From Candidatus Methylomirabilota bacterium (lineage in GTDB: Bacteria; Methylomirabilota; Methylomirabilia; Rokubacteriales; CSP1-6): 30,877 nt of DNA. Where the stretch lies: NCBI GenBank assembly GCA_046726415.1, contig JBKPAK010000118.1:1-30877 (forward strand). The letters are read 5' to 3'. Position numbers and translations under genes: made by a program. Shown in pieces: positions 3,251 to 23,360 of the stretch. How positions within the stretch are numbered: the stretch's first letter is position 1; every line of letters starts with the position of its first letter. The notes beneath the pieces were generated by a model. That model did not search any database. It was given only the letters and a program-made list of their open reading frames with translations, and was not told the origin of the DNA.

Positions 3251-5398
3251 CTACCCGTCGCTGGACCGCTTGACGATCAGCGCATCGACGACGGACAGGC
3301 CTTGGCCGCGCGGGTGGACGATGACGGGGTTGAGGTCGATCTCGGCGACCGCATCGGCGTGGTCAGCGGCGAAGCGAGACACGGCGACGAGCACATCCAC
3401 GAGGGCGTCCACGTCGGCGGGAGGTTCGCCGCGTACCCCCTCCAGGAGCCGGGCGCCCCGCAGCTGAGCAAGCAGGTCGTGCGCATCCTCGCGGGTGAGC
3501 GGGGCGGGGGCGAAGGCCACATCGCGCAGGGCCTCCACGAAGATGCCGCCGAGCCCGACCATCTGCAGGGGACCGAACGTGTCGTCACGCGTGACCCCCA
3601 CGATGACCTCGACGCCCTTCGGAACCATCTGCTGCACCAGCACGCCGCGGACCGCGGCGCCCGGATGGGCCGCTCGGGCGGAGGCCAGTACCTGCCGGTA
3701 TGCCCGGCGCAAGGCCGCCGGGGTGGCGAGGCCGAGCGCGAGCGCGCCCGCTTCGGTCTTGTGCGGGATGTCGGGCGACTGGACCTTGAGGGCGACCGGA
3801 AATCCGATCCTGCCGGCCGCTTCCACCGCCCCGGCCACGTCACTCGCCATTTCCTCGCGGGGTCGCGGAACACCATAGACGGCCAACACTTCCTTCGCCT
3901 CGGACTCGCACAGGAACTGGCCCGCTTGCCCGAGCCGCTGGCGCACCTCGGCGGCGCCGGGAGTGGGGGCAAGGTCATCCTCACTGCGCCGTCGCCATCG
4001 CTGCTGAAACTCCGCGTACTCCGCCAGCGCCCGCAGGGCTTTCACGCAGTTCGCCATGCTCGTGTAGGCCGGAATGCCGGCGCCAGCCAGGAGCATGACC
4101 GCGGCCGGTGAGGCGTTGGTGTAGGCGCAAAAGGCGATGGGCACCGCGCTCTGGCGCGCCACCCGCGAGATGGCGTCGATGTCGCGCCGGAGCGTCGTCT
4201 CGGTGGCCAGCGAGCCCACGACCAAGATCATGTCGACCACCGGCGATCGCTGGAGGATCTCGATGATGCGCGCGTAGCCGACCGCCCGGGCGGCCTGGGC
4301 CGTCAGATCGACCGGGTTCTGTGAAGAAGCATAGGACGGGATGAGCGGATCGATCTCCTTGCGCGTGGCCGCGTCGAGTTCGGGCAGTTCCAGTCCGTGC
4401 GCGGCGCACATGTCCGCCATCCAGGCGGCCCCCCCGCCCGAGGCGCTGAGCAAGGCCACCCGCCGTCCGCGGGGCGGTGGGCAGAAGGCGAAGGCCGCCG
4501 CCGTGTCCACCATCTCGTCGATGTCCTCGCCGCGGATGATGCCGTAGCGGCGGAACATGGCCTCGTATGCGCTATCCGAACCGGCCAGTGCGCCGGTATG
4601 CGACGCGGCCGCTCGCCGTCCGGCCTCCGAGCGGCCAACCTTGCCGACGATGATGGGCTTGCCGAGCCGCGCGGCCTTGGCGCCCACGGCGTGGAGCGTG
4701 GCCGCGCTTCGCACCGCCTCCATGTACACGAGGAAGATGTCGGCGCGTCCCTCGTCGAGCATCCAGTCGACGTAGTCGAGACCCTCGAGAGTCGCCTCGT
4801 TGCCGGAGCTGATCAGGTAGGTGAAACGAAGCTGTCGAGGCGCCCCGCGGTTCAGGTACGAAAAGCTGAGAGCCCCACTCTGGGCGATGACGCTGATGGC
4901 CCGGCCGCCGGCCACTTCGGGAATGAGGCGATATTCCTGATTCTCCAGGGAGGGGCTGAAGGTGGCGGCCAGGGGGCTCAGAGCATTGACCACGCCCTCG
5001 CAGTTGGGACCGCAGATGGCCATGTCGTAGCGCTGCGCGATCCGCTTCATCTCTTCCTGGCGAACGCGGGCCTCCTCTCCCTTCTCCTCTCCGAACCCCG
5101 ACGAGATGACCACCGCCGCCTTGATCCCCCGCTCGCCACACTCGGCCAAGACCTGCGCCACCGACGCCGCGGGAATGGCGATCACCGCGAGATCGACCGG
5201 CTCCGGCAGATCGGCGATGGAGCGATACGCCTTCAGACCCTGCACCTCCTCGCGGCTCGGCGTGACGGGGAAGACCTTGCCCGAGTAGCCGCGCAGCAGC
5301 AGGATGTGCAGCAGGCGTCCGCGGATAATGTCCTTGTCATCGGAGGCGCCCACGATGGCGAGGGCGCGCGGCCAGAGCAGCGGGGTGAGATCGGGCAT
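3251..5398 (-). CDS. Acetate--CoA ligase family (ADP-forming acyl-CoA synthetase, fused alpha/beta)
   Basis: CoA-binding N-terminus 'AIVGASDD', 'GPNCEG', phospho-His motif 'ASHTGALAG', ATP-grasp 'GFPVALKVQSPDIPHKTEAG' and 'EIDLNPV'. SD GAGGAG upstream. Confidence 0.93.
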   Translation of the reverse strand: MPDLTPLLWPRALAIVGASDDKDIIRGRLLHILLLRGYSGKVFPVTPSREEVQGLKAYRSIADLPEPVDLAVIAIPAASVAQVLAECGERGIKAAVVISSGFGEEKGEEARVRQEEMKRIAQRYDMAICGPNCEGVVNALSPLAATFSPSLENQEYRLIPEVAGGRAISVIAQSGALSFSYLNRGAPRQLRFTYLISSGNEATLEGLDYVDWMLDEGRADIFLVYMEAVRSAATLHAVGAKAARLGKPIIVGKVGRSEAGRRAAASHTGALAGSDSAYEAMFRRYGIIRGEDIDEMVDTAAAFAFCPPPRGRRVALLSASGGGAAWMADMCAAHGLELPELDAATRKEIDPLIPSYASSQNPVDLTAQAARAVGYARIIEILQRSPVVDMILVVGSLATETTLRRDIDAISRVARQSAVPIAFCAYTNASPAAVMLLAGAGIPAYTSMANCVKALRALAEYAEFQQRWRRRSEDDLAPTPGAAEVRQRLGQAGQFLCESEAKEVLAVYGVPRPREEMASDVAGAVEAAGRIGFPVALKVQSPDIPHKTEAGALALGLATPAALRRAYRQVLASARAAHPGAAVRGVLVQQMVPKGVEVIVGVTRDDTFGPLQMVGLGGIFVEALRDVAFAPAPLTREDAHDLLAQLRGARLLEGVRGEPPADVDALVDVLVAVSRFAADHADAVAEIDLNPVIVHPRGQGLSVVDALIVKRSSDG

Positions 5399-5419
5399 GG
5401 GATCTCCTCGTGGATCGTG

Positions 5420-6328
5420 CTAGCGGAACGCGGCGATGAGCTCCTGGAAAGCGACCATCTGACCCCCACGCGTCGATGAGGGCACCAATATCAACGAGGT
5501 GATGCCGGTGGCGTACCAGGCCTCGACGCCCTCGCGCACGTCGGCGACGCTGCCGAAGAGGGTCACCTCGGAGAGCCAGCGATCGGACATCAAGCTGGGA
5601 ATGCGCTCGTCCTGCCCGTCGGCGACGGCGCAGCGAATGGCTTCCATCTCGTCGGCGAAGCCCGCCTCGATCCAGTAGTTCTGGTAATTGCGCAGCTTCA
5701 CGTAGTGCGTCAAGGTTCGCCGGTTCACCGCGGCGGCGGCGGCCCGGTCCGCATCGATGCACGTCGGCACCATGTTGCCGATGAAGAAGGCCGGATCCGA
5801 TCGCCGCGCCGATGGTAAATGGCTGAGCGAGTCGATCATGTGGCGGCGCGCGCCATTGGCCCATACCGCGCCCTGGGCGAGCTCCCCCGCCAGTTCCACC
5901 ATGCGGCGGCGCAGGGTGGCGAGAACGATCGGCGGAAGCGCGCCGGCGTTCCGGGCGCCGGCTTCCAGGTCGGTCACGAAGCGCCGGATATCCTCCAGCG
6001 GCTTGCCCGCCCGAATGCCCAACCGGGCGTGCGTGGGTCCGTGGCTCACCCCGATGCCGAAGCGGAAACGGCCACCAGCGAGCTCGTGGATGAGCGCCGC
6101 CGTCTGCGCGAAGTCGAACGGATGGCGCGCGTAGATGTTGGCGATGCTGGTTCCGAAGGGAATATCGCGGGTCATCAGGGCCAGCGCCTGGCAGAGGCCG
6201 AGGCCATCGCCGAGGCTCGGACAGTAGATCCCCGTGAAACCCTCGCGCTCGATCTGCTGCGCCAATTCGAGCGTGGCGCGTCGGCGTCCGGGCACCGCGG
6301 CCAGGCTGACGGCCGGCTTTCTCGTCAT
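5420..6328 (-). CDS. LLM-class (luciferase-like) flavin-dependent oxidoreductase
   Basis: 'GTSIANIYARHP...AALIHELAGGRFRFGIGVSH' and 'LAGELAQG'. Start moved to ATG 6328 because GGAGG lies just upstream. Confidence 0.85.
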   Translation of the reverse strand: MTRKPAVSLAAVPGRRRATLELAQQIEREGFTGIYCPSLGDGLGLCQALALMTRDIPFGTSIANIYARHPFDFAQTAALIHELAGGRFRFGIGVSHGPTHARLGIRAGKPLEDIRRFVTDLEAGARNAGALPPIVLATLRRRMVELAGELAQGAVWANGARRHMIDSLSHLPSARRSDPAFFIGNMVPTCIDADRAAAAAVNRRTLTHYVKLRNYQNYWIEAGFADEMEAIRCAVADGQDERIPSLMSDRWLSEVTLFGSVADVREGVEAWYATGITSLILVPSSTRGGQMVAFQELIAAFR

Positions 6329-6350
6329 CGCCACCTCCGTGTGAATGGCA

Positions 6351-6373
6351 TATCATGACGGCATCCCCGGAGG
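6351..6373 (+). promoter_or_regulatory. Putative -10 box (TATCAT) and SD (GGAGG) for the acyl-CoA dehydrogenase operon
   Basis: TATCAT at 6351-6356 and GGAGG at 6369-6373, inside a 52-bp divergent intergenic region. Confidence 0.45.
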
Positions 6374-6380
6374 ATACGCG

Positions 6381-7508
6381 ATGAACTTCGATTTTTCCGA
6401 AGAGCAGCTCGTCCTGCGCGATCAGGCGCGCAAGTTCCTGAGCGAGCACGCCGCGCCGTCACGCGTGCGCCGTATCCTCGAATCCGATTCGCCGTACGAC
6501 AAGGACCTGTGGGACGGTCTGGCAGAAATGGCCTGGCCGGGAACCGCCATTCCGGAAACCTACGGCGGCGCCGGGTACGGCTACCTGGAGCTGTGCGTGA
6601 TCGCGGAGGAGCTGGGACGGAGTCTCGCGCCCACCCCGTTCTCCTCGTCCGTGTACCTGGCCACCGAGGCGATTCTTCTTGCCGGCACTGAGGATCAGAA
6701 AGAGCGGTGGCTCCCGAGACTGGCCGCGGGCCAGGCCATTGGATGCCTGGCCCTCAGCGAGGATGCACGCGCTCCTCGCCCCCAATCGATCGACACGCGA
6801 GTGGCCGACGGGCGGATCAGCGGCGTCAAGTTCCCGGTGGCCGACGGCGACGTGGCCGATCTCGCCGTGGTCCTCGCGCGGACCGCCGATCGCGCGCGAG
6901 ACGATGCCGCCTCGCTCGTCCTCGTCGATCTGCACGCCCCGGGGGCGACTCGCTCGCCCGTGGCGACCATCGATCCCACCCGTTCGCACGCCCGGATCGC
7001 CTTCGAGGGCGTCGCCGCCGAGCCGCTCGGCGCGGCCGGGGCAGGGTGGTCGCTGGTGGAGCGCCTGCTCGATCGCGCCGCCGTCCTCGTCGCTTTCGAA
7101 CAGGTGGGCGGGGCGCAGGCGGCGCTCGACATGGCCCGCGAGTACGCGCTGGGCCGCTTCGCGTTCGGCCGGCCCATCGCGTCGTTCCAGGCCATCAAGC
7201 ACAAGCTGGTGGACGTCTACGTGGCCCTCGAGCTGGCCCGCGCCAACGCCTATTACGGCGCGTGGGCGCTCTCCACCGACGCTCCCGAGCTGCCGGTGGC
7301 GGCGGCCACCGCCCGCATCAGTGCCAGCGACGCGTTCTTCCTCGCGGCCAAGGAGAACATCCAGACCCACGGGGGGATGGGCTTCACCTGGGAGTTCGAT
7401 TGCCACATGTACTACCGCCGAGCCAAGCTCCTGGCGCTCGTCCTCGGCAGCACGCGGAGCTGGAAGGACCGGCTCGTCGCGCGCCTCGAGGCGCGTGGGG
7501 CCGCCTGA
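6381..7508 (+). CDS. Acyl-CoA dehydrogenase family protein (PimD/FadE27-like small partner subunit)
   Basis: 'MNFDFSEEQLVLRDQARKFL', 'RFAFGRPIASFQAIKHKL', 'IQTHGGMGFTWEFDCHMYYRRA'. Start at ATG 6381 after GGAGG. Confidence 0.92.
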   Translation: MNFDFSEEQLVLRDQARKFLSEHAAPSRVRRILESDSPYDKDLWDGLAEMAWPGTAIPETYGGAGYGYLELCVIAEELGRSLAPTPFSSSVYLATEAILLAGTEDQKERWLPRLAAGQAIGCLALSEDARAPRPQSIDTRVADGRISGVKFPVADGDVADLAVVLARTADRARDDAASLVLVDLHAPGATRSPVATIDPTRSHARIAFEGVAAEPLGAAGAGWSLVERLLDRAAVLVAFEQVGGAQAALDMAREYALGRFAFGRPIASFQAIKHKLVDVYVALELARANAYYGAWALSTDAPELPVAAATARISASDAFFLAAKENIQTHGGMGFTWEFDCHMYYRRAKLLALVLGSTRSWKDRLVARLEARGAA

Positions 7509-7521
7509 GACGGAGGCCGTC

Positions 7522-8754
7522 TTGGATTTTCACGACACCCCCCCGGAAGCTCAATTCCGCGCCGAGTGCCACCGTTTCCTGGCGGCCAGCGTCGAGCGCA
7601 AGACCGGCTCCTTCGAGACGTGGCCGGCGCGCTGGGGCGAGGGGGAGAGTCTGCGCCGTGCCAAGGAGTTCCAGCGGAAGAAGGCCGAGGCGGGACTCGC
7701 GGCCATCACGTGGCCGAAGGCGTACGGCGGACGCGGCGAATCCCCCATCATGCAGGTGATCTACAACCAGGAGGAGGCGAGCTACTTCGTCCCCCGCGGG
7801 TATTTCGAGATCGGTCTCGGCATGTGCATCCCCACCCTGATGGCCTACGCCACCGAGGAGCAGAAGCACCGATACGTGGCGAAGGCCATCGCCGGCGAGG
7901 AGATCTGGTGTCAGCTTTTCTCGGAGCCCGCCGCCGGCTCGGACCTGGCGGGGCTGCGCACCCGCTCGGTGCGCGACGGTGACCGCTGGGTCATCAACGG
8001 CCAGAAGATCTGGACGTCGGGGGCGCACTTCGCCGACTACGGGATCCTCGTCACCCGCAGCGATCCCAAGGCGCCCAAGCACAAGGGACTGACCTTCTTC
8101 TTCCTCGACATGAAATCGCCGGGCATCGAGGTCCGCCGCATCAAACAGATCTCGGGCGCCTCGAACTTCAACGAGGTCTACTTCACCGACGTGCACGTGC
8201 TCGATACCCAGCGCCTCGGCGCGGTGGGCCAGGGCTGGGGCGTGGCCATCACGACCCTCATGAACGAGCGGCTGGCCGTGGGCGACGTGCGGGGGCCGGA
8301 CTTCGATGAGATCTTTCACTTGGCGCGCACGCTCGACCTGGAGGACGGGCCGGCGATCCGAAACGCCGCTGTGCGCGAGCGGCTCGCCGACTGGTACGTC
8401 CGCCAGCAGGGACTGCGCTGGACCAAATTCCGGACCATGACCGCGCTGTCCCGCGGCCAGACCCCGGGGCCGGAGGCCTCCATCGGCAAGCTCGTGAGCG
8501 CCACCAAGCTGCAGGAGATCGCCTCGTTCGGCGTCGACCTCATGGACATGGGGGGCGCGCTCATGGATCCGGCCCTGGCCCCCGCGCGAGCCGCTTTCCA
8601 AGAGGCGCTCCTGTACGCGCCCGGAGCCCGCATCGCGGGCGGCACCGACGAGATTCTCAAGAACATCCTCGCCGAGCGCGTGCTCGGTCTACCCGCCGAC
8701 ATTCGCGTGGACAAGGACGCATCCTTCGACGATCTGCCCACGGGACCACGGTGA
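7522..8754 (+). CDS. Acyl-CoA dehydrogenase family protein (PimC/FadE26-like catalytic subunit)
   Basis: 'WCQLFSEPAAGSDLAGL', 'NGQKIWTSGA', 'FNEVYF', 'LMNER', 'IAGGTDEILKNILAERVLGLP'. True start is TTG 7522 (MDFHDTP) after GGAGG at 7512-7516, not 6679. Confidence 0.92.
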   Translation: MDFHDTPPEAQFRAECHRFLAASVERKTGSFETWPARWGEGESLRRAKEFQRKKAEAGLAAITWPKAYGGRGESPIMQVIYNQEEASYFVPRGYFEIGLGMCIPTLMAYATEEQKHRYVAKAIAGEEIWCQLFSEPAAGSDLAGLRTRSVRDGDRWVINGQKIWTSGAHFADYGILVTRSDPKAPKHKGLTFFFLDMKSPGIEVRRIKQISGASNFNEVYFTDVHVLDTQRLGAVGQGWGVAITTLMNERLAVGDVRGPDFDEIFHLARTLDLEDGPAIRNAAVRERLADWYVRQQGLRWTKFRTMTALSRGQTPGPEASIGKLVSATKLQEIASFGVDLMDMGGALMDPALAPARAAFQEALLYAPGARIAGGTDEILKNILAERVLGLPADIRVDKDASFDDLPTGPR

Positions 8755-8765
8755 GAGGAGAAGCA

Positions 8766-9707
8766 ATGCGCTACGGATTCTATCTACCCACTCGGGGAGC
8801 GGCGGCCACGCCGGAGGCCCTGGAGGCCCTCCTCCAGCGCGGCGAGGCGCTCGGCTTCCACTCGGTGATGATCGCCGACCACGTCGTGTTCCCCACCACC
8901 ATCAAGTCGAAGTATCCCTACACCGTGAGCGGCGTGTTCCCCGGCCATGGCGACGCCCTCGAGCAGCTCGCCCTGGTGACGTTCGCCGCCGCCAAGACGC
9001 GCCGCCTGCGCCTGGTGACCAGCGTGATGATCGTCCCCTACCGCAACCCGGTGGTTACCGCGAAAGCCCTGGCCACCATCGATGTGCTCTCGCACGGTCG
9101 CCTCACCGTGGGGGTGGGGGTGGGGTGGCTGCGCGAGGAGTTCGAGGCCCTCGAATCGCCTGACTTCGAGCGCCGGGGCGCGGCCAGCGATGAGTACCTG
9201 CGCATCTACAAGACGCTCTGGACGAAGTCGCCCGCCTCCTTCGCCGGCGAGTTCTACCGTTTCGATGAGCTGCGCTGTGAGCCGCTGCCCGTGCAGAAAC
9301 CTCACCCACCGATCTGGGTCGGCGGCCACAGCCCGGCGGCGATTCGCCGAGTGGCGCGCCTCGGCGACGGCTGGCATCCGGTCGGCGCCAACGCCGCCGT
9401 GCCGCTGCGCCCGGCCGAGTTGAAAGCCTCGCTGAAAGAACTGTTCCGGCTCACCGAGGCGGCCGGGCGGGATCCCAAGTCCCTGACCATCTCGTTCAAG
9501 GCGCCGGTGTACGACACGACGCTCACCGCGGCGGGAGGCGAGCGTCGGCCCTTCTCGGGAACGACCGAGCAGATTGCCGAGGACATCGCGACGTACGCGC
9601 GGCTCGGGGTCAGCGAGCTGATCTTCGACTTCCGCAGCGAGAAGTCCGCCGAGAGCCTCGAGCGCATGGAGCGCTTCACGGCGACGGTCATGGCCGCCGC
9701 CCGGTGA
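8766..9707 (+). CDS. LLM-class, probably F420-dependent oxidoreductase (Rv2161c-like)
   Basis: 'GFHSVMIADHVVFP...YPY', 'RNPVVTAKALATIDVLSHGRLTVGVGVGWLREEF', 'PVQKPHPPIWVGG'. ATG 8766 follows GAGGAG. Confidence 0.9.
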   Translation: MRYGFYLPTRGAAATPEALEALLQRGEALGFHSVMIADHVVFPTTIKSKYPYTVSGVFPGHGDALEQLALVTFAAAKTRRLRLVTSVMIVPYRNPVVTAKALATIDVLSHGRLTVGVGVGWLREEFEALESPDFERRGAASDEYLRIYKTLWTKSPASFAGEFYRFDELRCEPLPVQKPHPPIWVGGHSPAAIRRVARLGDGWHPVGANAAVPLRPAELKASLKELFRLTEAAGRDPKSLTISFKAPVYDTTLTAAGGERRPFSGTTEQIAEDIATYARLGVSELIFDFRSEKSAESLERMERFTATVMAAAR

Positions 9708-9713
9708 GCCGCA

Positions 9714-9728
9714 TGGAGGGGGTGTCTC
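9714..9728 (+). repeat. Half-copy of the intergenic GC hairpin at 18081-18111
   Basis: TGGAGGGGGTGTCTC matches TGGAGGGGGCGTCTC (minus strand of the 18081-18111 hairpin) at 14/15 positions. Confidence 0.4.
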
Positions 9729-9741
9729 CGAGGACTCCGCG

Positions 9742-10971
9742 ATGATCATGCCGCTCGAGGACGTGAAAGTGCTGGATCTCTCCCACGCGCTCGCCGGTCC
9801 CTTCTGCTCCACGATGCTCGGCGACTTCGGCGCCGATGTGGTGAAGGTCGAGCCCCCCGACAGCGGGGACATCTCGCGCGCCTGGGGACCGCCGTTCTAC
9901 GGAACAGAGACGGCGTACTTCGTCGGTCTGCACCGCAACAAAAAGAGCATCGAGATCGACCTCAAGCACCCGGCGGGCCGGGAGCTGTACTTCCGACTGA
10001 TGGAGAAGGCCGACGTCGTCCTGGAAAACTACCGCGTGGGAACGCTGGAGAAACTCGGCATCGCTTACGAAGCGGCGCGCCGGCGACACCCCGGCATCAT
10101 CTACTGCTCGGTCTCCGGCTTCGGACAGAGCGGGCCGTACCGCGATCGCGCCGCGCTCGACCTCATCGTGCAGGCGGAGAGCGGCATGATCAGCGTCACC
10201 GGCGAACCGGGTGGGCGGGGCGTGCGCTGCGGGGTGTCCGTCGCCGACATGGTGGCCGGCATGTACGCTGCCTTCGGTATCTTGAACGCCCTTCGCGTGA
10301 AGGAGAAGACCGGGCGCGGCCAGTACGTCGACGTGGCCATGCTCGACGGTCAACTCGGCATCCTGTCGGGGATGATCGGCGCCTACCTGGCCGACGGCCA
10401 GGTGCCCGCGCCCATGGGGACGGCGTACAAGGCGCTGCTTCCGTACCAGACGTTCCGCACCAAGACACGGGATGTCGCCCTCGCCGTGGGCAGCGACAAG
10501 CTGTGGAAAACGTTTTGCCCGCTGATGGGTCTCGACGACTGGGTGGACGACCCGCGCCTCGCCACTAACCGCGCGCGCAATGCCAATCGCACCGCGCTCG
10601 TCGGTCGACTTCAGGAGATCTTCCTCACCAAGACCTACGAGGAGTGGGAGGCGATCCTCATGCCTCATGGCATCCCGATCGGCGCCATCAACACCATCGA
10701 CGCGGTGGTGAAGCATCCACAGGCGGCCGCGCGCGGGATGATCGTGGAAACGGACCACCCCACCGCGGGCACGATCAAGATGGTGGGCGTGCCCGTGAAG
10801 CTCTCCGAGACGCCGGGGGCCGTGCGCGACCCCGCCCCGCTTCTCGGTCAGCACACCGATGACGTTCTGCGCTCCTGGCTCGGACTCGGTAACGCCGACA
10901 TCGCGGATCTTCGCCGCGCCGGCAGTATCGGCCCCCAGAGAAACGGCGGAGGTACCGCCCTCGATCGCTGA
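9742..10971 (+). CDS. Family III CoA-transferase (CaiB/BaiF)
   Basis: 'VKVLDLSHALAGPFCSTMLGDFGADVVKVE', 'RNKKSIEIDLK', catalytic Asp region 'SVADMVAGMYAA', 'APLLGQHTDDVL'. Confidence 0.95.
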   Translation: MIMPLEDVKVLDLSHALAGPFCSTMLGDFGADVVKVEPPDSGDISRAWGPPFYGTETAYFVGLHRNKKSIEIDLKHPAGRELYFRLMEKADVVLENYRVGTLEKLGIAYEAARRRHPGIIYCSVSGFGQSGPYRDRAALDLIVQAESGMISVTGEPGGRGVRCGVSVADMVAGMYAAFGILNALRVKEKTGRGQYVDVAMLDGQLGILSGMIGAYLADGQVPAPMGTAYKALLPYQTFRTKTRDVALAVGSDKLWKTFCPLMGLDDWVDDPRLATNRARNANRTALVGRLQEIFLTKTYEEWEAILMPHGIPIGAINTIDAVVKHPQAAARGMIVETDHPTAGTIKMVGVPVKLSETPGAVRDPAPLLGQHTDDVLRSWLGLGNADIADLRRAGSIGPQRNGGGTALDR

Positions 10972-10980
10972 CGTCCCCAT

Positions 10981-11835
10981 CTACCAGACGACGTCGGCGC
11001 GTTCGCCGAACTCGAACTGGAAGGTGATCTCCTCCAGCTCGGCGGCGCTGAGGGCGCCTCGCCTCGCCAGCACGCACTCGAAGGCGGCCAGCCAGGCGTC
11101 GTAGTAGCGGAACTCGCCGCCGCGCGCTTCGGCGGCGGCGACCTCGGCGATCAGCGCCTGGCGGAACTCCGCCCACGGAAACAGTCCTCGTTCGGAGAGC
11201 GCCACGGCCATGCCCAACACGCGCCCCTGCCAGGGGGCGTCGAAGACCAGCTCGCCGTTGCGCCGCGGGACGGCGACACTTCCACCGAGATCGGCGAGCA
11301 GGCGGTGCAGACGCGCCTCCGTCGCGTCTTCGGACACCGCGGTGACCACCGATCGGCAGGCCTGCGGCGCCGCTGCCGCGGAGAGACGCCGAGGACGGTG
11401 GTCATCCACCGGCTGACCGTCCGGGCGCGGCTGCCAGGACGAGGCCGTGAACAGCAGTACGGCCAGGGCAGGCGCCAGGGGCCGGTGTGGATCGTCGGCG
11501 TCCAGCATCCCGTCGATATGGTCGTACAGCGCCAGCACCAGCGCCGGGGAGTCGACCGAGTGAAACCAGAAAGCCTGGCCGTCGAAGAGCAGCAGGACTA
11601 CGTTGGCCAGGGCACAGGGACCGAGGCAACCGCCGACCGTGAGGTGCACGACGTTGCGCAGCCGTCGACGCTCCCACTCGGTGTGGTACAGCGCCGTGGG
11701 CACCGGCGCGAACCCGTCCTCCGTACGCCCGCAGCAGCAACCGGTCGCGCACACGAAGAGCTGGCCACGCGGGCGGGCCACGTTGACGAGACGGCCGTCG
11801 GGCCGGACGACGATGTTGCGCCGACGTTCGCGCAT
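10981..11835 (-). CDS. Nitrile hydratase accessory protein (P14K/NhlE-like) fused to an N-terminal Cys-rich thioredoxin-like ferredoxin domain
   Basis: C-terminal part 'PRRNGELVFDAPWQGRVLGMAVALSERGLFPWAEFRQALI...YYDAWLAAFE' is the NHase-beta-like accessory signature. N-terminal part has 'LFVCATGCCCG...GGCLGPC'. It starts 4 nt after the nthA stop. Confidence 0.85.
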   Translation of the reverse strand: MRERRRNIVVRPDGRLVNVARPRGQLFVCATGCCCGRTEDGFAPVPTALYHTEWERRRLRNVVHLTVGGCLGPCALANVVLLLFDGQAFWFHSVDSPALVLALYDHIDGMLDADDPHRPLAPALAVLLFTASSWQPRPDGQPVDDHRPRRLSAAAAPQACRSVVTAVSEDATEARLHRLLADLGGSVAVPRRNGELVFDAPWQGRVLGMAVALSERGLFPWAEFRQALIAEVAAAEARGGEFRYYDAWLAAFECVLARRGALSAAELEEITFQFEFGERADVVW

Positions 11836-11839
11836 GCGG

Positions 11840-12445
11840 TCAATCGCCGCCGCCGGGAGCGGGCAGCCGCACCTGGGCGACGCCGATCAGCGCCTCACGC
11901 GTGATCTGGCGCGCCAGGTCGTCCTCGGGCAGTCGCTCGGCGCCGTCCGGGCGCAGGGGTAGCACCATGTAGCGAAGCTCGGCGGAGCTGTCCCACACGC
12001 GCACCTCGCGCTCCGGCGGGATGGCCAGGCCGAACTCCGCGAGCACCTTGCGGGGCTCGCGGACCGCGCGAGCGCGATAGGCCGGCATCTTGTACCAGGT
12101 CGGCGGCAATCCCATCACGTCCCACGGATAGCAAGAGCAGAGCGTGCAGACGACGATGTTGTGGACGGCCGGCATATTCTCCTTCACCACCAAACGGTCG
12201 TAGTTCAGGCCGAGGTCGACCAGCGCGGCTTTTGAGTCTTGGAGAAGGCGCCGCTTGTAGGTCGGATCGCGCCAGGCCCGTGCCACCGCCCGCGCTCCGA
12301 TCAGCGGTCCCGTGCTCGTCTCGTATCGGCGGATGACGCGGTCGACGGCGTCAGGCGGGAGAATCCCCTTCTCGAGAAGGATCGACTCCAGCGCGCGCAC
12401 GCGCGACACGACATAGTCGTCGACGTTCGGATGGTTCTTCCCCAT
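11840..12445 (-). CDS. nthA: Cobalt-type nitrile hydratase alpha subunit
   Basis: Metal-binding motif VCTLCSCY (Thr form, Co-type), 'GLPPTWYK..AYRARAVREPR', 'RVWDSSAELRYMVLP'. ATG 12445 follows a purine-rich SD. Confidence 0.96.
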   Translation of the reverse strand: MGKNHPNVDDYVVSRVRALESILLEKGILPPDAVDRVIRRYETSTGPLIGARAVARAWRDPTYKRRLLQDSKAALVDLGLNYDRLVVKENMPAVHNIVVCTLCSCYPWDVMGLPPTWYKMPAYRARAVREPRKVLAEFGLAIPPEREVRVWDSSAELRYMVLPLRPDGAERLPEDDLARQITREALIGVAQVRLPAPGGGD

Positions 12446-12462
12446 CGCCCTCTCCCCCTGCC

Positions 12463-13140
12463 TCAACCAGGCAGCAGATAGCTCTCCCAGAGGTCGAGGT
12501 AGACGTGCTGGTTTGGCTCGGCCACCTCGCCCCAGAGCTCCCGCGCGTCGAAACGCACGCTGTACACGGGCTTGGGCTGCTCGCCAAGGCCGTGAGCATG
12601 CGCGTCCGGGAACACGTGAACGCCCCGGTGAGCGGCGATCACGCCGCGCTTGCCGCGGGCGTAGCGGGGCAGCCGGGTATGCCCAGTGGGATGCATGGTG
12701 CGCGTCGCCACCGGCGCGCCCTCCGCGAAGCGGGGCGCACGAGTGGCATCCCGAAACGACGTTTCAGCTTCCGGGCGACCTCTGATGACTCCGGGAGTCG
12801 CCGGCTTCCTCGGCGCGGCGGTGAGGGGCGCTTGCGGCCGAGCCCGGAAGAAGGCTGTCCGCGCCTCCATCTCCTCGGCGGTGACCACGCCCTTTTCGAT
12901 GAGGAGCCGCACGATCCCGTCCAGCCAGTGCTCGAAGTAGCTCGAGCCGAGGTAGTGCGCCGGGTCCATGCGCTCGATGCTGTGGCGGAACTCGTCGATG
13001 CTGTAGAATCCGGCGGCTTGACCCGAGCGCATGATGGCCACCATGGCCGCCTCCCAGCGGGCATGGAACGGTGGCTCGTTCTCCTCTCGCTCCACCGGGC
13101 CAAAACCGTGCATCCCGCCGAGATCGTGGATTCCGTCCGT
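12463..13140 (-). CDS. nthB: Nitrile hydratase beta subunit (apparent ACG start codon)
   Basis: 'DGIHDLGGMHGFGPV', 'PFHARWE', 'DEFRHSIERM...SYFEHWL', 'GHTRLPRYARGKRG', 'YSVRFDARELWG', 'DLWESYL'. The position of the conserved Met1 reads ACG (13140-13138), 6 nt after GGGAG. Confidence 0.93.
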   Translation of the reverse strand, partial: TDGIHDLGGMHGFGPVEREENEPPFHARWEAAMVAIMRSGQAAGFYSIDEFRHSIERMDPAHYLGSSYFEHWLDGIVRLLIEKGVVTAEEMEARTAFFRARPQAPLTAAPRKPATPGVIRGRPEAETSFRDATRAPRFAEGAPVATRTMHPTGHTRLPRYARGKRGVIAAHRGVHVFPDAHAHGLGEQPKPVYSVRFDARELWGEVAEPNQHVYLDLWESYLLPG

Positions 13141-13146
13141 GGCGGA

Positions 13147-13166
13147 CTCCCAAGCGCGGCATCTTA
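13147..13166 (-). promoter_or_regulatory. Putative -10 (TAAGAT) and SD (GGGAG) for nthB
   Basis: Minus-strand TAAGAT at 13166-13161 and GGGAG at 13151-13147. No clear -35 box. Confidence 0.4.
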
Positions 13167-13236
13167 CCGCGGTCTTGACCTCGCTGGCCCGGGGGCTACC
13201 ACCCACGTCGGCCCTCCCAAGCGCCGCGCGGTATCG

Positions 13237-13318
13237 AGGGGCGCTCCGGCTCCGCGGGGGGTGCCCCGAGGCGCTGAGGGGCTTGGGGGCCCTTCGAGGC
13301 CCCCCATGTAATCAATCA
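13237..13318 (-). repeat. Structured REP-like intergenic element with two GC hairpins; possible terminator/attenuator between the amidase and nthB
   Basis: Minus strand reads TGATTGATT, then a GGGGGCC/GGCCCCC stem (13285-13304), then a second imperfect stem GGGGCGCTCC...GGGGTGCCCC (about 13238-13267). Confidence 0.5.
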
Positions 13319-14704
13319 AACGGCCGGGTGCCTCCGGTGCCAGTCGGTGGCTTGCTCGTATGCGTGGCCCGCGCGTAGCACTGTCGCCTCGTCGTAAGGC
13401 CGTCCCGCGATCTGGAGGGAGAGCGGCAAGCCCGTCTCGGTGAACCCGCACGGGACGGCGAGGGCCGGCAGGCCTGTCATGTTGAACGGCGCCATGTTGC
13501 TGCGCGCAAACGGGAAGTCGGGGTCAAGCACGGTCGCAAACGACGGGGCCGGGCCCGGAGTGGTGGGCGTCACCAGCAGGTCGATGTGGCGGAAGGCGGC
13601 GGCCATGTCCGTGCACATCTGAGCGCGCAGGCGCTGAGCCTGGACGTACTCAGCGCCGGTCAGCAAACCACCGGCAAGAAACTTCTCGCGCAACACGTCG
13701 CCGTAGAGCTCCGGCCGCTCCCGCAGGTCCCGCTCGTGATAGGCGAAGGCCTCGGCGAGGGTGATGACCAGGAAGGCCATCGCGGACCGGATGCTCGGGA
13801 TCTCGACCTCTTGGACCTCGGTCCCCAGCTCCCGCAAGACAGCGAGGGCGCGCTCGAAGGCCCGATCCATTTCGGGATGGATGCCCTCGAAGAAGTAGCC
13901 GCGCGGGACGCCCACCCGCAGACCGCGCATGCCGTCCTGCAGCGACGCGAGATAGTCGCTTATCGGCTCCCGGCTGGAGGCCGGATCGGCCGGATCGTAT
14001 CCCGCCAAGGCCTGGAGCAGGTACGCGCAGTCCTCTACCGTTCGCGCCATCGGGCCCGTATGGTCGAGCGTCCACGACAAGGTCACCACGCCGGCGCGGC
14101 TGCAGCGTCCGTACGTCGGCTTGATGCCGACGATGCCCGAGAACGCCGCCGGCCCACGGATGGAACCGCCCGTGTCAGAGCCGAGAGCCCCGACACACAG
14201 GCCGGCGGCCAGGGCCGCGCCCGATCCGCTGCTGGAGCCACCCGGCATGTGATCGAGATTCCAGGGGTTGCGGGCGGGCGGGAAGCGATGGGCGGGGAAC
14301 TGGATGCCGAGGGCGAACTCGTGGGTGATCAATTTGCCGAGCATCGCGCAACCGGCGTTCTGCAGCCGCGTCACGCACGTGGCGTCGGCGTCAGGAACCC
14401 AGTCGGCGAGGACCGCAGAACCCGCGGTGGTCAGGATGCCGTTCGTCGCGTAGAGATCCTTGTACGCGACCGGGATACCCACGAGGGGGCCAGTCCGATC
14501 GCCGCGTCGGAACGCCGACTCCGCGGCCTGGGCCTCCATCCTGGCCCGATCTCCGGTCAAGGTCACGAACGCTCGCAACATTGGGTCGAGCTTTTCGATC
14601 CGCGCCAGGAGGGCCTCGAGGAGTTCTACGGGCGAAAGCGTGCGCCGGCGGAACGCCTCGCCAAGTTCCCGGATGGTGGCGTAGTGAAGCTCAGCGATCG
14701 CCAT
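13316..14704 (-). CDS. Amidase signature family enzyme
   Basis: Lys-cisSer-Ser triad motifs 'AYKDLY', 'PGGSSSGS' and 'GSDTGGSIRGP'; also 'NPWNLDH'. ATG 14704 follows GGAG. Confidence 0.95.
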   Translation of the reverse strand: MAIAELHYATIRELGEAFRRRTLSPVELLEALLARIEKLDPMLRAFVTLTGDRARMEAQAAESAFRRGDRTGPLVGIPVAYKDLYATNGILTTAGSAVLADWVPDADATCVTRLQNAGCAMLGKLITHEFALGIQFPAHRFPPARNPWNLDHMPGGSSSGSGAALAAGLCVGALGSDTGGSIRGPAAFSGIVGIKPTYGRCSRAGVVTLSWTLDHTGPMARTVEDCAYLLQALAGYDPADPASSREPISDYLASLQDGMRGLRVGVPRGYFFEGIHPEMDRAFERALAVLRELGTEVQEVEIPSIRSAMAFLVITLAEAFAYHERDLRERPELYGDVLREKFLAGGLLTGAEYVQAQRLRAQMCTDMAAAFRHIDLLVTPTTPGPAPSFATVLDPDFPFARSNMAPFNMTGLPALAVPCGFTETGLPLSLQIAGRPYDEATVLRAGHAYEQATDWHRRHPAV

Positions 14705-14900
14705 AGCCTGCTCCGGCGTCGAACGCCACCGCCGGCTCAATCGTCCTGAGCGCGCGGCTATCAGTGGCGAGGACCGGCGCTAGCGCCGTGTTGAGGAGCG
14801 CGCGCACCATCTCGAGGCGCGCCTCGGCGATGTGGAGTCCCGCGGCCCGCATCCGGTCTCGGATCTCGTCTTCGGTCAGCGTCCGGCTCAGTTCGCTCAT
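14691..14900 (-). CDS. Small (69 aa) GatC/AtzG-like amidase partner protein
   Basis: 'MSELSRTLTEDEIRDRMRAAGLHIAEARLEMVRALLN...TIEPAVAFDA' shows the helix-GL-helix pattern ending in EPxxxF. It overlaps the amidase start by 14 nt. Confidence 0.7.
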   Translation of the reverse strand: MSELSRTLTEDEIRDRMRAAGLHIAEARLEMVRALLNTALAPVLATDSRALRTIEPAVAFDAGAGYGDR

Positions 14901-15068
14901 GGCGACCACCATACACCAGGCGGCTGCTCCTTGACGCCGCCGACGACCTGGCACCGCAGCGCGTCGCCTTGGGCTTGACGTTCGACCAGTAGGTCGGAGG
15001 CTCGGGACCGGGCGGCCCTTGCTCGGCCCAGGCCGCGCCCGTACGCTGAAGGTGATTGGTCAAGGGTC

Positions 15069-15725
15069 ATGGGTCGGCTCTGGTATCGCTGGCCGCTTGC
15101 CCGTTATGACCGCGCGTACCGCTGGGCGCACGGGCTGGACCAGTGCGCCGCCCGGATCGGGCCCATCATTCGCCTCGAGCAGCAGCGTCAACGCGGGGAA
15201 GCCATCCTCTCCGATGGCACCGCGGTGCGCCGGGGTGACCTGATCGGCGTCATCCACCTCGACAACGCCGCGGTGGCGGCCCTGCACGCGGGCGGCCGGA
15301 ACCCCCAGGCTATCGGACTGGAATTCCGGCGCCAGTTGGTCACCTCGCTGCGCGAATTGGCAGTCCTGGCCAGTCACGGCGGACGGCTCTCGCATCTGAA
15401 CGCGTTTGCGGCCACCACAATCTTCCTCGGGCTCCGGCGGCTCGGCTTCGAGCGGACGCGGGGGCCGATCTTCCCGCGGCTCGTGGGCGCGTACCAGCGC
15501 GCTCTGCTCTCCTGGCTGCACCCGGCGGGGCGCTCTCGTTCAGACCTCGGGGGACATCCGAGCGCCCAACGGTTGGCGATCTCGAGGCAGGAGCTGATCC
15601 TGCGGTACGCCCAACCCGACATCGCGATCCGCGCGGGGGCAGTGCGCCGAGCGGATGTCCGCCGAGCGGCGGCCAGTCGGCGCGCTCTCAGCGGCTCTCC
15701 TCGGCGCGCTTCCGAACCGTCTTAA
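15069..15725 (+). CDS. YkoP-like protein
   Basis: 'IIRLEQQRQRGEAILSDGTAVRRGDLIGVIHLDN' resembles the YkoP-family 'LSDGT.I..GD.....H..N' pattern; also 'LRRLGFE'. The low-complexity tail may be read-through. Confidence 0.65.
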   Translation: MGRLWYRWPLARYDRAYRWAHGLDQCAARIGPIIRLEQQRQRGEAILSDGTAVRRGDLIGVIHLDNAAVAALHAGGRNPQAIGLEFRRQLVTSLRELAVLASHGGRLSHLNAFAATTIFLGLRRLGFERTRGPIFPRLVGAYQRALLSWLHPAGRSRSDLGGHPSAQRLAISRQELILRYAQPDIAIRAGAVRRADVRRAAASRRALSGSPRRASEPS

Positions 15726-20173: not shown

Positions 20174-20216
20174 TGCCCCGCGCCGTCAAGGCGAAAGAGC
20201 CAGATGCGACATCGCG

Positions 20217-20245
20217 TTGCCCTCGCCCGCTCAGTCTGGTATCAC
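20217..20245 (+). promoter_or_regulatory. Putative sigma70-type promoter giving a leaderless amidase mRNA
   Basis: TTGCCC-17 bp-TATCAC with a TGn extension. ATG 20252 lies 6 nt after the -10 box and has no SD. Confidence 0.5.
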
Positions 20246-20251
20246 GAGCCC

Positions 20252-21928
20252 ATGATCGATCTCACTCCAGATCGCGTGCGCGCGTTGGCGGACGCCCTCG
20301 GCGTACCGCTCTCGGCTGACGACGTCGATGAGGTGACGCATCGCCTGAACGCTTTTCTCGACGCGCAGACGCCGCTGGCCGATCTGCCGCTCGACTCGGT
20401 GGAGCCCGTCCCCGCCTGGATGCCGAACGACCGTGCCTCCGCTCGCCGCGCCGCCCGCGCGCCCCGCGCCCGGTCCGCGAAGGGCCTGGCTACTCGGGAG
20501 ACCCACGACCCCAACGCGTCGATCGCGCACCGGAGCGCCACCGAGCTCGCTGGGCTGATCCACGCTCGAGAGGTCTCTCCGACCGCGCTGGTCGAGGCCC
20601 ACCTCGAGCGCATCGAACGCCTCGACGGGGACCTGCGCGCCTACATCACGGTGTGTGGAGAATCCGCGCTCGCCGACGCGAAGCGCGCCGAGGCGGCGGT
20701 GACGCACGGCGAGATCACCGGCCCATTCCACGGTCTTCCGTTCGCGGTGAAGGACCAGTTCGACACCGCCGGCCTCCGCACCACGTCGGGATCGCGGCTG
20801 CTCGCAGACAACATCCCCACCACCGACGCCCCCGTGGTCGCGCGCCTCCGCGCCGCCGGCGGAATTTTGCTGGGCAAGCTGAACATGACGGAATTCGCCC
20901 TCGGGGGGACTATCGACTTCCCCTTCGGCCAGCCGCGCAATCCGTGGAATCGCCTGCACGATCCAGGCGGCTCTTCGTCCGGATCGGGCATCGCCGCCGC
21001 GGCATCGCTGGCCACCGTGACGCTCGGAGAGGACACGGGCGGTTCGGTGCGCTCGCCCGCGGGCTGGTGCGGCGCGGTGGGACTGCGGCCCACCTGGGGG
21101 CTCGTGCCGCGCTCGGGCTGTTTTCCCCTGAGCTGGTCGATGGACGCCGCGGGCCCGCTCACCCGGACGGTCGAAGACGCCGCGCGAGTGCTCGCCGTGA
21201 TCGCCGGCCCCGATCCCGGTGACCCGCTGATGCGCCAGACACCGGCCCCCGATGTGATCACGCCCCTGCGAGCGGGTGTGCGCGGCCTGAGGATCGGCGT
21301 GATCCGCGAGCTGACCCTGGGCGTGGACACCGACTCGGAGGTACGCGCGGCCGTGCTCGCAGCGGCCGATGTGCTTCGGGGCCTTGGCGCGACCGTCGAC
21401 GAGGTCTCCCTCCCGCTCCTGCCGCTCTCGGGCGCCGTCTTCATGGCCATCGCCGACTCGGAGGGCGCGGGACGCCATCGGCCGTGGCTGGCGACGCGCG
21501 GCCAGAACTACGACGCGGGAACTCGGCGCCGGCTGGTGACCGCCGGATTGATTCCCACCGCGGTATATCACCAGGCGACGCGGGCGAGGGCCCTGATCCG
21601 AGCGCAAGTGCTCGAGACGCTCGGTCGCTGGGACGTCCTGTTGGCCCCGACAGCGCCGCGGAGCGCGCCGCTCATCGCCCAGACGCAGGCGCCGGTCACC
21701 GGCAAGGAGCAGGCGGCGGCGCGCTTCTTCACGCGCCGTTCCTACACCACGCCGGTCAGCCTGGCCGGAACACCGGCCATCTCAGTCCCGTGCGGCTTTA
21801 CCACAGCCCGTCTTCCCATCGGCCTGCAGATCGCCGGGCGCCTCTTCGACGAGCCGACGGTGCTTCGCGTCGCATGGGCATACGAGCAAGCCACGCCCTG
21901 GCATCGCGAGCGACCGCCGCTGGCTTGA
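20252..21928 (+). CDS. Amidase signature family enzyme with a fused N-terminal GatC-like segment
   Basis: 'AVKDQFD', 'PGGSSSGS', 'GEDTGGSVRSP'. N-terminal 'MIDLTPDRVRALADALGVPLSADDVDEVTHRLN...DSVEP' is followed by an Arg/Ala-rich linker. Confidence 0.92.
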   Translation: MIDLTPDRVRALADALGVPLSADDVDEVTHRLNAFLDAQTPLADLPLDSVEPVPAWMPNDRASARRAARAPRARSAKGLATRETHDPNASIAHRSATELAGLIHAREVSPTALVEAHLERIERLDGDLRAYITVCGESALADAKRAEAAVTHGEITGPFHGLPFAVKDQFDTAGLRTTSGSRLLADNIPTTDAPVVARLRAAGGILLGKLNMTEFALGGTIDFPFGQPRNPWNRLHDPGGSSSGSGIAAAASLATVTLGEDTGGSVRSPAGWCGAVGLRPTWGLVPRSGCFPLSWSMDAAGPLTRTVEDAARVLAVIAGPDPGDPLMRQTPAPDVITPLRAGVRGLRIGVIRELTLGVDTDSEVRAAVLAAADVLRGLGATVDEVSLPLLPLSGAVFMAIADSEGAGRHRPWLATRGQNYDAGTRRRLVTAGLIPTAVYHQATRARALIRAQVLETLGRWDVLLAPTAPRSAPLIAQTQAPVTGKEQAAARFFTRRSYTTPVSLAGTPAISVPCGFTTARLPIGLQIAGRLFDEPTVLRVAWAYEQATPWHRERPPLA

Positions 21929-23088: not shown

Positions 23089-23116
23089 CGAGGCCTTCGC
23101 TCGTGGATGGGCCGCC

Positions 23117-23360
23117 TCAGTTGTCCGCCGCGGTGGAGGGATGGCCCTGGGTGTCATCGTCGACGAGCTCGATCGGCCGGCCGGCCGGCTGATAGCTGAC
23201 CGAGCTTCAGCGCGTCGGCCATGTCGTTGCCGCCTGGGCGAAGATCCCGATCAGCGGGCCGAGGGATCCCACGCTGATTGCCTCATGGGCCGGGCGACGG
23301 CAGTACGCGCGGGCAATCACAGAGAGTGCGCGGCGCTCATCGCGATGCGACCGATCTCAT
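23117..23360 (-). pseudogene. Frameshifted 5' remnant of a LivJ/LivK-type ABC transporter substrate-binding protein
   Basis: Joining frames gives 'PAHEAISVGSLGPLIGIFAQ / GNDMADALKL / AGRPIELVDDDTQGHPSTAADN*'. This matches the family N-terminus 'IKVG.L.PLTG.FA..G.DM..GL.L....AGR.IELV.EDT.G.P.TA'. Confidence 0.7.

Follow-up and report, generated by a model that had tools for sequence, protein, structure and literature searches.

The activators of cobalt-type (Co-type) nitrile hydratases, such as NhlE, NhhG and P14K (TIGR03889), are small, single-domain proteins, which are held to insert cobalt and to oxidise the ligand cysteines, and perhaps have a redox role, according to passages of a 2020 review (PMC7193024). 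The part of the review that deals with gene order lists six gene organisations for activators, none of them with an added domain (PMC7193024). In vitro, cobalt enters the apo-α subunit only in the presence of dithiothreitol (DTT), with an optimum at 2 mM (in part of PMC7329996), and passages of both papers describe the cobalt route to the Co-type enzyme as still unclear and the known activators as lacking obvious metal ligands (PMC7193024, PMC7329996). CobW and Nha3, the activator of Fe-type nitrile hydratase, are CxCC GTPases, and cobW usually adjoins cobN; two clients are known for the CxCC GTPase chaperones, CobN and nitrile hydratase, and the pertinent passages of two papers report no published evidence of CobW acting directly on CobNST (PMC7689651, PMC11672702).

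Here, we analyse a fusion gene in a 30,877-nucleotide stretch of DNA (hereafter the window; GenBank assembly GCA_046726415.1, contig JBKPAK010000118.1) from a soil bacterium of the Candidatus Methylomirabilota. The gene directly follows the nitrile hydratase subunit gene nthA, and its product joins a cysteine-rich, ferredoxin-like domain at the N-terminus (the N-domain) to a nitrile hydratase accessory domain at the C-terminus. With modest confidence, we favour the reading that the gene encodes a two-part maturation factor, in which a cobalt-handling and thiol/redox module has been placed on the subunit-swapping chaperone for the upstream Co-type nitrile hydratase. Judged by its C-terminal domain, the protein appears to be a member of the Co-type accessory family, yet it does not share one defining feature of that family, a small size with a single domain. 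The part of the Haloferax 'open issues' paper that deals with CobN contains nothing on a CobN ferredoxin domain (PMC8305020). A first-pass annotation of the window knew of no described activator with such an architecture, and the full-text literature searched, in which subscription journals are thinly covered and supplements are outside, yielded no paper that describes a domain of ferredoxin type on CobN or on an activator of nitrile hydratase. CbiW of Bacillus megaterium is a ferredoxin-like gene in a cob operon, and is not used as support here.

A two-domain nitrile hydratase activator

The features of the fusion gene, given as positions in the window, are as follows.

10981..11835, minus strand: fusion gene, 284 aa plus stop; ferredoxin-like N-domain, linker and C-terminal nitrile hydratase accessory domain
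11773..11835, minus strand: residues 1-21, predicted β-hairpin extension R.N.V.R.DGR.VNVAR.RG (model strands E8-10 and E16-18)
11425..11772, minus strand: residues 22-137, predicted thioredoxin-like [2Fe-2S]-ferredoxin-fold domain (AlphaFold model, VIA and Foldseek)
11728..11751, minus strand: C29-A-T-G-C33-C34-C35-G, first cysteine loop (VCATGCCCG), with C29 and C35 at putative ligand positions and C33 and C34 extra
11614..11631, minus strand: G-C70-L-G-P-C74, second cysteine loop, with the same GCLGPC as in A. vinelandii FeSI (5abr)
11386..11436, minus strand: residues 134-150, WQPRPDGQPVDDHRPRR, conserved post-domain segment, specific to nitrile hydratase fusions with the N-domain first
11278..11385, minus strand: residues 151-186, variable linker, probably disordered, with the semi-conserved C160 at 11356-11358 (pLDDT and alignment)
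10984..11277, minus strand: residues 187-284, Co-type nitrile hydratase accessory domain (TIGR03889, PF21006 and fold match)

The first-pass annotation had described an uninterrupted open reading frame (ORF) of 284 aa, 4 nt after nthA, and the ORF listing agrees: the frame at 10981..11835 on the minus strand has an ATG start and no interruption, and 4 nt separate the stop codon of nthA (11840..12466, minus strand) from this ATG. Proteins of 283-284 aa that are identical or 99% identical to the fusion (P0003-P0006) are encoded on 8, 21, 2 and 1 other contigs. The contigs of three other soil runs span the ORF and the linker with substitutions only, no indel being listed inside 10981-11835. Among 44 related loci from species-representative genomes, the frame is intact with both domains in 35, cut by the end of the contig in five and interrupted in four. 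As all four interrupted loci (L019, L029, L038 and L039) come from one series of metagenome-assembled genomes (MAGs) whose isolate names begin with 'MFD', and as the nthA and nthB matches in L038 are likewise split, this looks like indel error in the assemblies rather than gene decay. All 38 aligned homologues are collinear, with both domains conserved. The fusion is widespread, and its absence from related genomes, which would have spoken against a functional unit, is not what is seen: 949 homologous proteins are found at E ≤ 0.001, and the 120 best of them are 65-100% identical, with coverage of about 99% of the query, and of at least 95% in all but one. An artefact, in which an assembly error or frameshift joins two genes, or in which a ferredoxin gene was fused without functional meaning, could draw on the four interrupted loci and on the many short metagenomic gene calls of the family that are truncated or chimeric; given the identical proteins on other contigs, the collinearity, the indel-free soil runs and the 35 intact loci, an assembly or frameshift artefact is ruled out as far as sequence can tell, and we assign next to no probability to this explanation as a whole.

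The C-terminal part had been noted as a typical nitrile hydratase accessory domain of about 100 residues, and the family models place it there without difficulty: residues 198-267 score 71.1 bits against the TIGR03889 cut-off of 46 (NCBIfam), and Pfam NHase_beta_N (PF21006) matches residues 182-272 at E 1.2e-12. In the AlphaFold model, residues 166-274 match the nitrile hydratase β chains 3wvd_B, 3a8m_B, 2ahj_D and 4fm4_B at VIA Z 8.0-8.4, which is near the grey zone of the tool and agrees with the sequence match. The domain contains no invariant cysteine or histidine in the alignment of 38 rows, and shares 43% identity with P0273, a plain accessory protein encoded elsewhere in the same genome. 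It is thus well supported that the C-terminal domain is an ordinary Co-type accessory domain, which copies the N-terminal part of the β subunit. Like NhlE, NhhG and P14K, the fusion has a β-subunit-like predicted fold, passes the family cut-off with its C-terminal 98 residues and sits in the β-α-activator order given as typical of Co-type operons in part of PMC7193024. In contrast to these activators, it is 284 aa long and has a further domain, modelled with confidence, at residues 22-137. Its additional 186 residues contain a cysteine in the linker, the conserved segment RPDG..DD.RPR and six cysteines that are conserved.

The N-domain is modelled with pLDDT (predicted local distance difference test) values of about 85-96 over residues 20-130 (AlphaFold, 38 homologues in the alignment), and its likeness to thioredoxin-like [2Fe-2S] ferredoxins, which the first-pass annotation had proposed, is borne out by several comparisons. 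With VIA, the model reaches Z 10.3 to 1m2a_B (root-mean-square deviation, rmsd, 2.1 Å, 91 of its 101 residues), 10.1 to 5abr_A and 10.6 to 9bp5_B, with rmsd 2.1-2.6 Å over 91-95 residues overall, so that whole ferredoxins of 101-109 residues are covered. Foldseek places thioredoxin-like [2Fe-2S] ferredoxins at the top with probability 1.00, the matches including NuoE, HydB, NfnB and FdsG. When the PDB is searched with the single sequence, A. vinelandii FeSI (5abr) matches at E 1e-4; a profile of 36 diverse relatives brings 5abr to 1.3e-7 and matches the N-terminal domains of 7t2r_B (2e-5) and 7q4v_B (0.0026). The N-domain therefore appears to have the same fold throughout as Aquifex aeolicus Fd4 (1M2A) and Azotobacter vinelandii FeSI (5ABR; Z 10.1-10.6 for the set), shares an identical GCLGPC with FeSI, and aligns its four best-kept cysteines with those of the N-terminal [2Fe-2S] domains of NuoE, HydB and NfnB. 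It differs from thioredoxin-like ferredoxins in its short first loop (C-x5-C) with two extra cysteines, in the added N-terminal hairpin, and in being fused to CobN, nitrile hydratase accessory domains or YHS/HMA rather than placed in electron-transfer complexes. By sequence and model, it resembles a thioredoxin-like ferredoxin and falls within no curated family. The two-domain build first read from the sequence is hence supported by family models for the C-terminal half and by predicted-structure comparison.

Eight cysteines are present in the whole protein, namely C29, C33, C34, C35, C70 and C74, at the positions first reported and confirmed by the translation, together with C160 and C254. 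The HMMER alignments place C29 and C35 on the pair of cysteines in 'VCR-GTGC' of 7t2r_B, and C70 and C74 on 'GC.G.C'. The four align with the four cysteines of 7t2r_B and 7q4v_B, and three of them with cysteines of 5abr, which we take to be the [2Fe-2S] ligands of these proteins. NuoE-type domains have the spacing C-x4-C...C-x3-C. The same C-x4-C spacing had been assigned to the N-domain, where it proved to be C-x5-C...C-x3-C. Across 140 unique rows, C29 is kept in 140; the count is 139 for each of C35, C70 and C74, 135 for C33 and 137 for C34. Of the rows, P0150, P0192, P0194 and P0217 are without C33 or C34 but keep the other four cysteines and are normal in other respects. This pattern, in which the difference in conservation is small, suggests four cluster-type ligands and two extra loop thiols; the suggested division into four ligand and two spare cysteines hence fits the conservation (139-140 versus 135-137 of 140), if weakly, and the binding of a cluster and of cobalt that went with it is putative.

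Two further explanations start from these cysteines. The N-domain could be a true [2Fe-2S] ferredoxin that never touches cobalt and acts in single-electron transfer, so that on the nitrile hydratase side it would keep the cysteines of the α subunit reduced before insertion, or take the electron of the Co(II) to Co(III) step and aid cysteine oxidation. The fold and the ligand positions match those of [2Fe-2S] domains, cobalt insertion in vitro depends on DTT (passages of PMC7329996), and a redox function has been proposed for Co-type activators (passages of PMC7193024); however, the retention of C33 and C34 in 135-137 of 140 rows is left unexplained, and we regard such a redox helper as possible, at rather low odds. 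Conversely, all six cysteines could bind Co(II) as thiolates on a ferredoxin-like scaffold without any cluster. The CCC run is nearly invariant, as this would lead one to expect, yet the four best-kept cysteines lie exactly on the [2Fe-2S] ligand positions, including the identical GCLGPC, and a cluster-free site is hence judged unlikely.

The hairpin of residues 1-21 is common to CobN-fused and YHS-fused forms of the domain and absent from short standalone paralogues; its residues N7, V9, R11, D13, G14, N18, V19, A20 and R21 are invariant in 38 of 38 rows. In the segment of residues 134-150, R137, P138, D139, D145 and R147 are likewise invariant in all 38 rows, the model confidence is low (49-59), and the segment is not present in the CobN-fused rows of the alignment. 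pLDDT falls below 50 at residues 146-170 and 183-195. The linker varies in length from 30 to 84 aa across the rows, with at least one cysteine in 33 of 38. Its description as rich in alanine and proline is only roughly right: the two together make up 27% of residues 136-186, and arginine is as common as proline.

The nearest named relative of the N-domain is DUF1636 (PF07845), which is found in 17-26% of the members of the nearest clusters in a language-model search. DUF1636 comprises small 'metal-binding' proteins of cob operons and is also a relative of thioredoxin-like ferredoxins, with an atypical loop cysteine (part of PMC4520260); part of bioRxiv 10.64898/2025.12.19.695462 links it to B12 clusters and describes it as 'potentially involved in cobalt insertion'. 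Nevertheless, it is a separate family by hidden Markov model, and membership was ruled out: the N-domain of the fusion has no match, five of 36 relatives match weakly (best E 0.0073), and a search with PF07845 recovered no N-domain in five genomes, including four with CobN-fused copies.

The domain on CobN and beside metal transporters

A domain very similar to the N-domain had been placed, in the first-pass annotation, at the N-terminus of some CobN cobaltochelatases. In an exhaustive HMMER search of 1.84 billion representatives, 384 proteins were found at E ≤ 0.001, and the domain content was taken from the 150 best. Eleven of these carry CobN-Mg_chel, two of them being full-length (1484 and 1449 aa) with the N-domain at the very N-terminus, and the suggested link to CobN is therefore correct. 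Six of the 150 best carry NHase_beta_N, which lies after the N-domain in P0133 and before it in P0131, P0136, P0158 and P0254, and four carry YHS, one of these also HMA; single fragments have CbtA or FecCD. The remainder are short, and many of them, by eye, end in the first residues of CobN. One metagenomic protein, P0136 (408 aa), possibly combines an accessory domain, the N-domain and, by eye, a stretch like the start of CobN, Pfam reporting only NHase_beta_N.

The CobN-fused form occurs in Chloroflexota, where the N-domain was found in 59 genomes of an even sample of 401 at E ≤ 1e-8. In this sample, 30 places lie in open frames of 1412-1575 aa and are 56-66% identical to the N-domain of the fusion. 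A second sample, of 151 genomes, has 18 places that score above 1300 bits for CobN-Mg_chel, and 13 of these were already among the carriers of the N-domain. These long CobN proteins share with the fusion both the hairpin and C-x3-(G/A)CCCG ... GCLGPC, in what is an unnamed N-terminal extension. They differ in that the domain is followed by about 130 residues and then by the CobN-Mg_chel region of 1090 positions, inside B12 clusters, whereas in the fusion it is followed by the accessory domain, in a genome where CobN was not found. The public names of such proteins are 'nitrile hydratase accessory protein', 'cobaltochelatase CobN' or 'YHS domain-containing protein/copper chaperone CopZ', the domain itself appearing in none of them, and JGI names some nitrile hydratase fusions 'cobaltochelatase CobN'.

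Five B12-cluster loci with a fused cobN were read. In all five, CobO is encoded directly upstream of cobN and CobD nearby, and CobT and CbiM are also present in three. On the CobN side, a ferredoxin that never touches cobalt would feed the reduction of Co(II) to Co(I) that the neighbouring adenosyltransferase CobO needs, in keeping with the gene order in these five loci. However, CobO is also upstream of two of five unfused cobN genes (L072 and L074), and this alternative of rather low probability leaves unexplained the fusions to YHS and HMA as well as the position of the domain after cbiMQO or a metal-efflux ATPase.

The latter positions are seen in two loci. In L062 (6142-11310), an N-domain-YHS gene (253 aa) comes last after cbiM-cbiQ-cbiO, and a divergent gene for a NicO Ni/Co permease adjoins. 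In L064 (2730-6810), a CsoR/RcnR-type repressor, a P1B ATPase (HMA, cupredoxin-like end) and an N-domain-YHS protein (234 aa) are encoded in this order on one strand. A third locus (L065:8435-10384) has the N-domain as a standalone gene, into which an insertion sequence (integrase core domain, 8728-10038) has gone at about residue 41. This gene follows znuABC-like genes and is flanked by two COG0523 genes, and a member of the FUR family is encoded nearby. Given these occurrences on CobN and next to cobalt transporters, the domain is probably a cobalt-handling part common to several systems.

The proteins to which the N-domain is fused, CobN and the nitrile hydratase accessory domain, are the same two that stand as clients of the CxCC chaperones. 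A cluster-free cobalt chaperone would correspond to the CxCC site of CobW and Nha3 but need no GTPase, and would carry cobalt from importers to CobN or to the α subunit of nitrile hydratase. It would account for the fusion to exactly these two client systems, for the cbiMQO, NicO, P1B ATPase, YHS and HMA contexts, and for the interrupted standalone copy in L065 with its COG0523 and znuABC-like neighbours. Against it, cobW adjacency gives no contrast between fused and unfused cobN, and all five genomes with a fused cobN still have 5-7 COG0523 genes each, so this form of delivery keeps only a small share of the probability. In genome G550, PF02492 gives a weak match (22.5 bits) at a distance of 8 kb upstream of cobN.

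A more distant, standalone family occurs in the phylum of the window genome (L050:6108-6467, L052:6828-7187, L053:6331-6735 and L054:6013-6375). Its members have 119-134 aa with F.C.GCCCGH ... ECLGPC, are 30-45% identical to the N-domain and are without the N-terminal hairpin.

Spread, history and setting of the fusion

The 44 related loci are labelled mostly Methylomirabilota/Rokubacteria and Chloroflexota/Dehalococcoidia, with a few other labels. The survey of the fusion beside nthAB that the first-pass annotation had called for shows, besides the 35 intact frames, nthA directly upstream in 43 of the 44 loci, the remaining locus starting at the gene itself, and nthB upstream in 41. In the α subunits of such operons, VCTLCSC (C107-T-L-C-S-C112), presumably the cobalt-type signature, is invariant in 28 of 28 aligned. 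Within the phylum of the window genome, 116 of 251 genomes match the N-domain at E ≤ 1e-5: 55 have a near-full-length match with at least 62% identity (56 places), three have a partial match, and the rest show 30-45% identity. The α subunit of nitrile hydratase is found in 149 of the 251 genomes. The tallies for the phylum, and a further tally of 30 of 151, include genomes flagged as unpublished (G076, G216, G217 and G293), G076 being among the 55; these genomes enter into no other result.

The window genome (7.6 Mb, 352 contigs, 98% complete) has one copy of the N-domain, and CobN was not found in it, hence the N-domain works without CobN here; five other fusion-carrying genomes likewise gave no match to CobN. 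A second Co-type operon of the same genome (L048, G000:C214:29000-39000, at about 4453-7811) encodes NthA with VCTLCSC, NthB, the plain accessory protein P0273 of 127 aa and an amidase, in this order, from which it follows that the N-domain is an option and not a general need. Upstream of this operon, a ring-opening amidohydrolase of the AtzD/TrzD family is encoded on the other strand.

That a plain accessory protein is enough for the second operon would suit a further explanation, in which the cysteine site, with Fe-S or zinc, reports on oxygen, redox or metal status or stabilises the activator and has no part in the chemistry. Thioredoxin-like ferredoxin domains are often accessory modules in larger enzymes, as the matches to NuoE, HydB, NfnB and FdsG illustrate. 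However, the CobN-fused and nitrile-hydratase-fused forms are 56-66% identical in different phyla, the fusion recurs in both domain orders, and its recurring position next to cobalt importers speaks for a specific task held in common, so that a sensor or structural domain appears very improbable.

The history of the fusion was approached with a quick maximum-likelihood tree of 147 domain sequences, with a midpoint root, labels from simple patterns and many forks left open. All 42 nitrile hydratase fusions with the N-domain first fall in one cluster of 59 rows (support 92), which is itself nested in a group that includes CobN-fused rows (support 84). A separate clade (starred, 98) contains P0131 and P0136, and P0158 lies inside a clade of CobN type (starred, 99). 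Although the free tree separates these fusions, independent origins were not accepted from the N-domain tree alone, as a single origin is not rejected by approximately unbiased (AU) tests, whose groups were chosen with the tree already in view, either for all nitrile-hydratase-fused N-domains (p 0.097) or for the accessory-first fusions (p 0.16). The accessory part of P0158 is closer to P0273 (52% identity, 125 bits) than to the accessory domain of the fusion (45%, 59 bits); P0158 is hence a plain-type accessory domain joined to a CobN-type N-domain. This, together with the opposite domain orders, points to more than one fusion event, that is, at least two. Recruitment of the N-domain from cobalamin synthesis, as put forward in the first-pass annotation, is consistent with the unrooted tree of moderate support, and the agreement goes no further than consistency.

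In the window, the fusion gene is the last of a likely amidase-nthB-nthA-activator unit.

13316..14740, minus strand: amidase (PF01425, E 7e-118), first gene of the likely unit
12463..13206, minus strand: nthB, β subunit (PF21006 and PF02211; TIGR03888, 246 bits), overlapping the start of nthA by 4 nt
11840..12466, minus strand: nthA, α subunit, 208 aa, with VCTLCSC (PF02979, E 7.5e-76; TIGR01323, 256 bits)
10945..10959, minus strand: terminator-like hairpin just 3' of the fusion stop codon (weak, one site versus 1.8 expected in shuffles)

The ORF of nthB is listed from a GTG at 13206, and as the family models match only from residue 24, its true start is probably later; no ATG, GTG or TTG is obvious immediately before the conserved DGIHDLGG. 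An ORF of 87 aa (14691-14954, minus strand) overlaps the start of the amidase gene and falls in no Pfam family; it might encode a small amidase-associated subunit or reflect a mis-set amidase start. No sigma-70-like site was found in 10700-15300, and no Rfam match in the window. From 346 to 30558, the window is rich in genes related to amides, nitriles and acyl-CoA, such as a second amidase (20204-21928), four luciferase-like monooxygenases (5420-6334, 8751-9707, 22093-23157 and others), a family III CoA-transferase, an acyl-CoA dehydrogenase, an ADP-forming CoA ligase, a Rieske oxygenase and a thiolase with a ChsH2-like OB protein. Pfam annotation of the genes of the window shows no cobalt transporter.

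A candidate route for cobalt into nitrile hydratase

In the two-part maturation factor that we favour, the C-terminal domain would, by homology with NhlE and P14K, hold the apo-α subunit and release it to β once it is loaded (self-subunit swapping). C29, C35, C70 and C74 would hold a [2Fe-2S]-type centre, as in NuoE/HydB-type domains, while C33 and C34, perhaps with C160 of the linker, may contribute thiol/redox chemistry for cobalt insertion. The thiols of C33 and C34 could bind Co(II) and pass the metal on, maintain the α subunit's three active-site cysteines in the reduced state, or both; the N-domain may in this way supply in the cell what DTT supplies in vitro, and the cluster could accept an electron as Co(II) is converted to Co(III). 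The same module would serve the cobalt side of CobN, as its N-terminal part, in B12 clusters and, when fused to YHS, would do so after cobalt importers.

A more specific proposal, which we put forward tentatively, is that the N-domain is a nucleotide-independent cobalt chaperone, by which Co(II) would be carried from CbiMQO or NiCoT to CobN and to the α subunit of nitrile hydratase, with coupled one-electron chemistry. The [2Fe-2S]-type site, C33, C34 and the cysteine of the linker, carried on a flexible arm, would receive Co(II), and the domain would do the job of CobW and Nha3 in these lineages, an assignment that is somewhat doubtful at present. The likeness to the COG0523 G3E GTPases (CobW for CobN, Nha3 for Fe-type nitrile hydratase) lies in the same client systems and in a cysteine-cluster metal motif, as far as the passages on these GTPases go (PMC7689651, PMC11672702). 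In contrast to them, the fusion has no GTPase domain (PF02492), Pfam reporting only NHase_beta_N, and appears to have another fold; the parallel with the CxCC chaperones is an analogy only, and one of function.

Several observations weigh against a cobalt-handling maturation factor. The assignment of C29, C35, C70 and C74 as ligands is putative, being drawn from alignment and a predicted model, and the split into four ligands and two spare cysteines would follow weakly from the few variant rows P0150, P0192, P0194 and P0217. Residues 1-135 match no Pfam family even at E ≤ 10, and the N-domain scores below the curated NCBIfam cut-offs (NF041613, 21.4 bits versus 195; NF041612, 14.8 versus 150). 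The cobalt-transporter context of L062 and the metal-efflux context of L064 are one locus each, as is the context of L065, and the neighbours of the distant standalone paralogues look by eye like enoyl-CoA hydratase and exonuclease, a non-metal context. A COG0523 gene was found near cobN in none of five fused and none of five unfused loci (stretches of 9-20 kb, in which the positive control worked), and the AU tests leave a single origin of the fusions standing. Lastly, judged from gene content, the N-domain appears dispensable for the enzyme class, as 149 of 251 genomes have the α subunit versus 55 with a near-full-length N-domain, and as the second operon makes do with P0273. The fusion is, in sum, a clear, testable lead on cobalt delivery and not yet a demonstrated mechanism.

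If the nucleotide-independent chaperone proved true, nitrile hydratase would be the first non-corrin cobalt enzyme with a dedicated thiolate metal-delivery domain inside its swapping chaperone. A conserved cysteine domain on both client systems provides a concrete, separable part for questions of cobalt delivery. Nitrile hydratases are industrial enzymes for acrylamide and nicotinamide and are often hard to mature in E. coli, as noted in part of PMC7193024, and an activator with its own thiol/redox module could ease their heterologous production at low cobalt. Moreover, a large set of public proteins, named CobN, accessory protein or CopZ, hides this unnamed domain.

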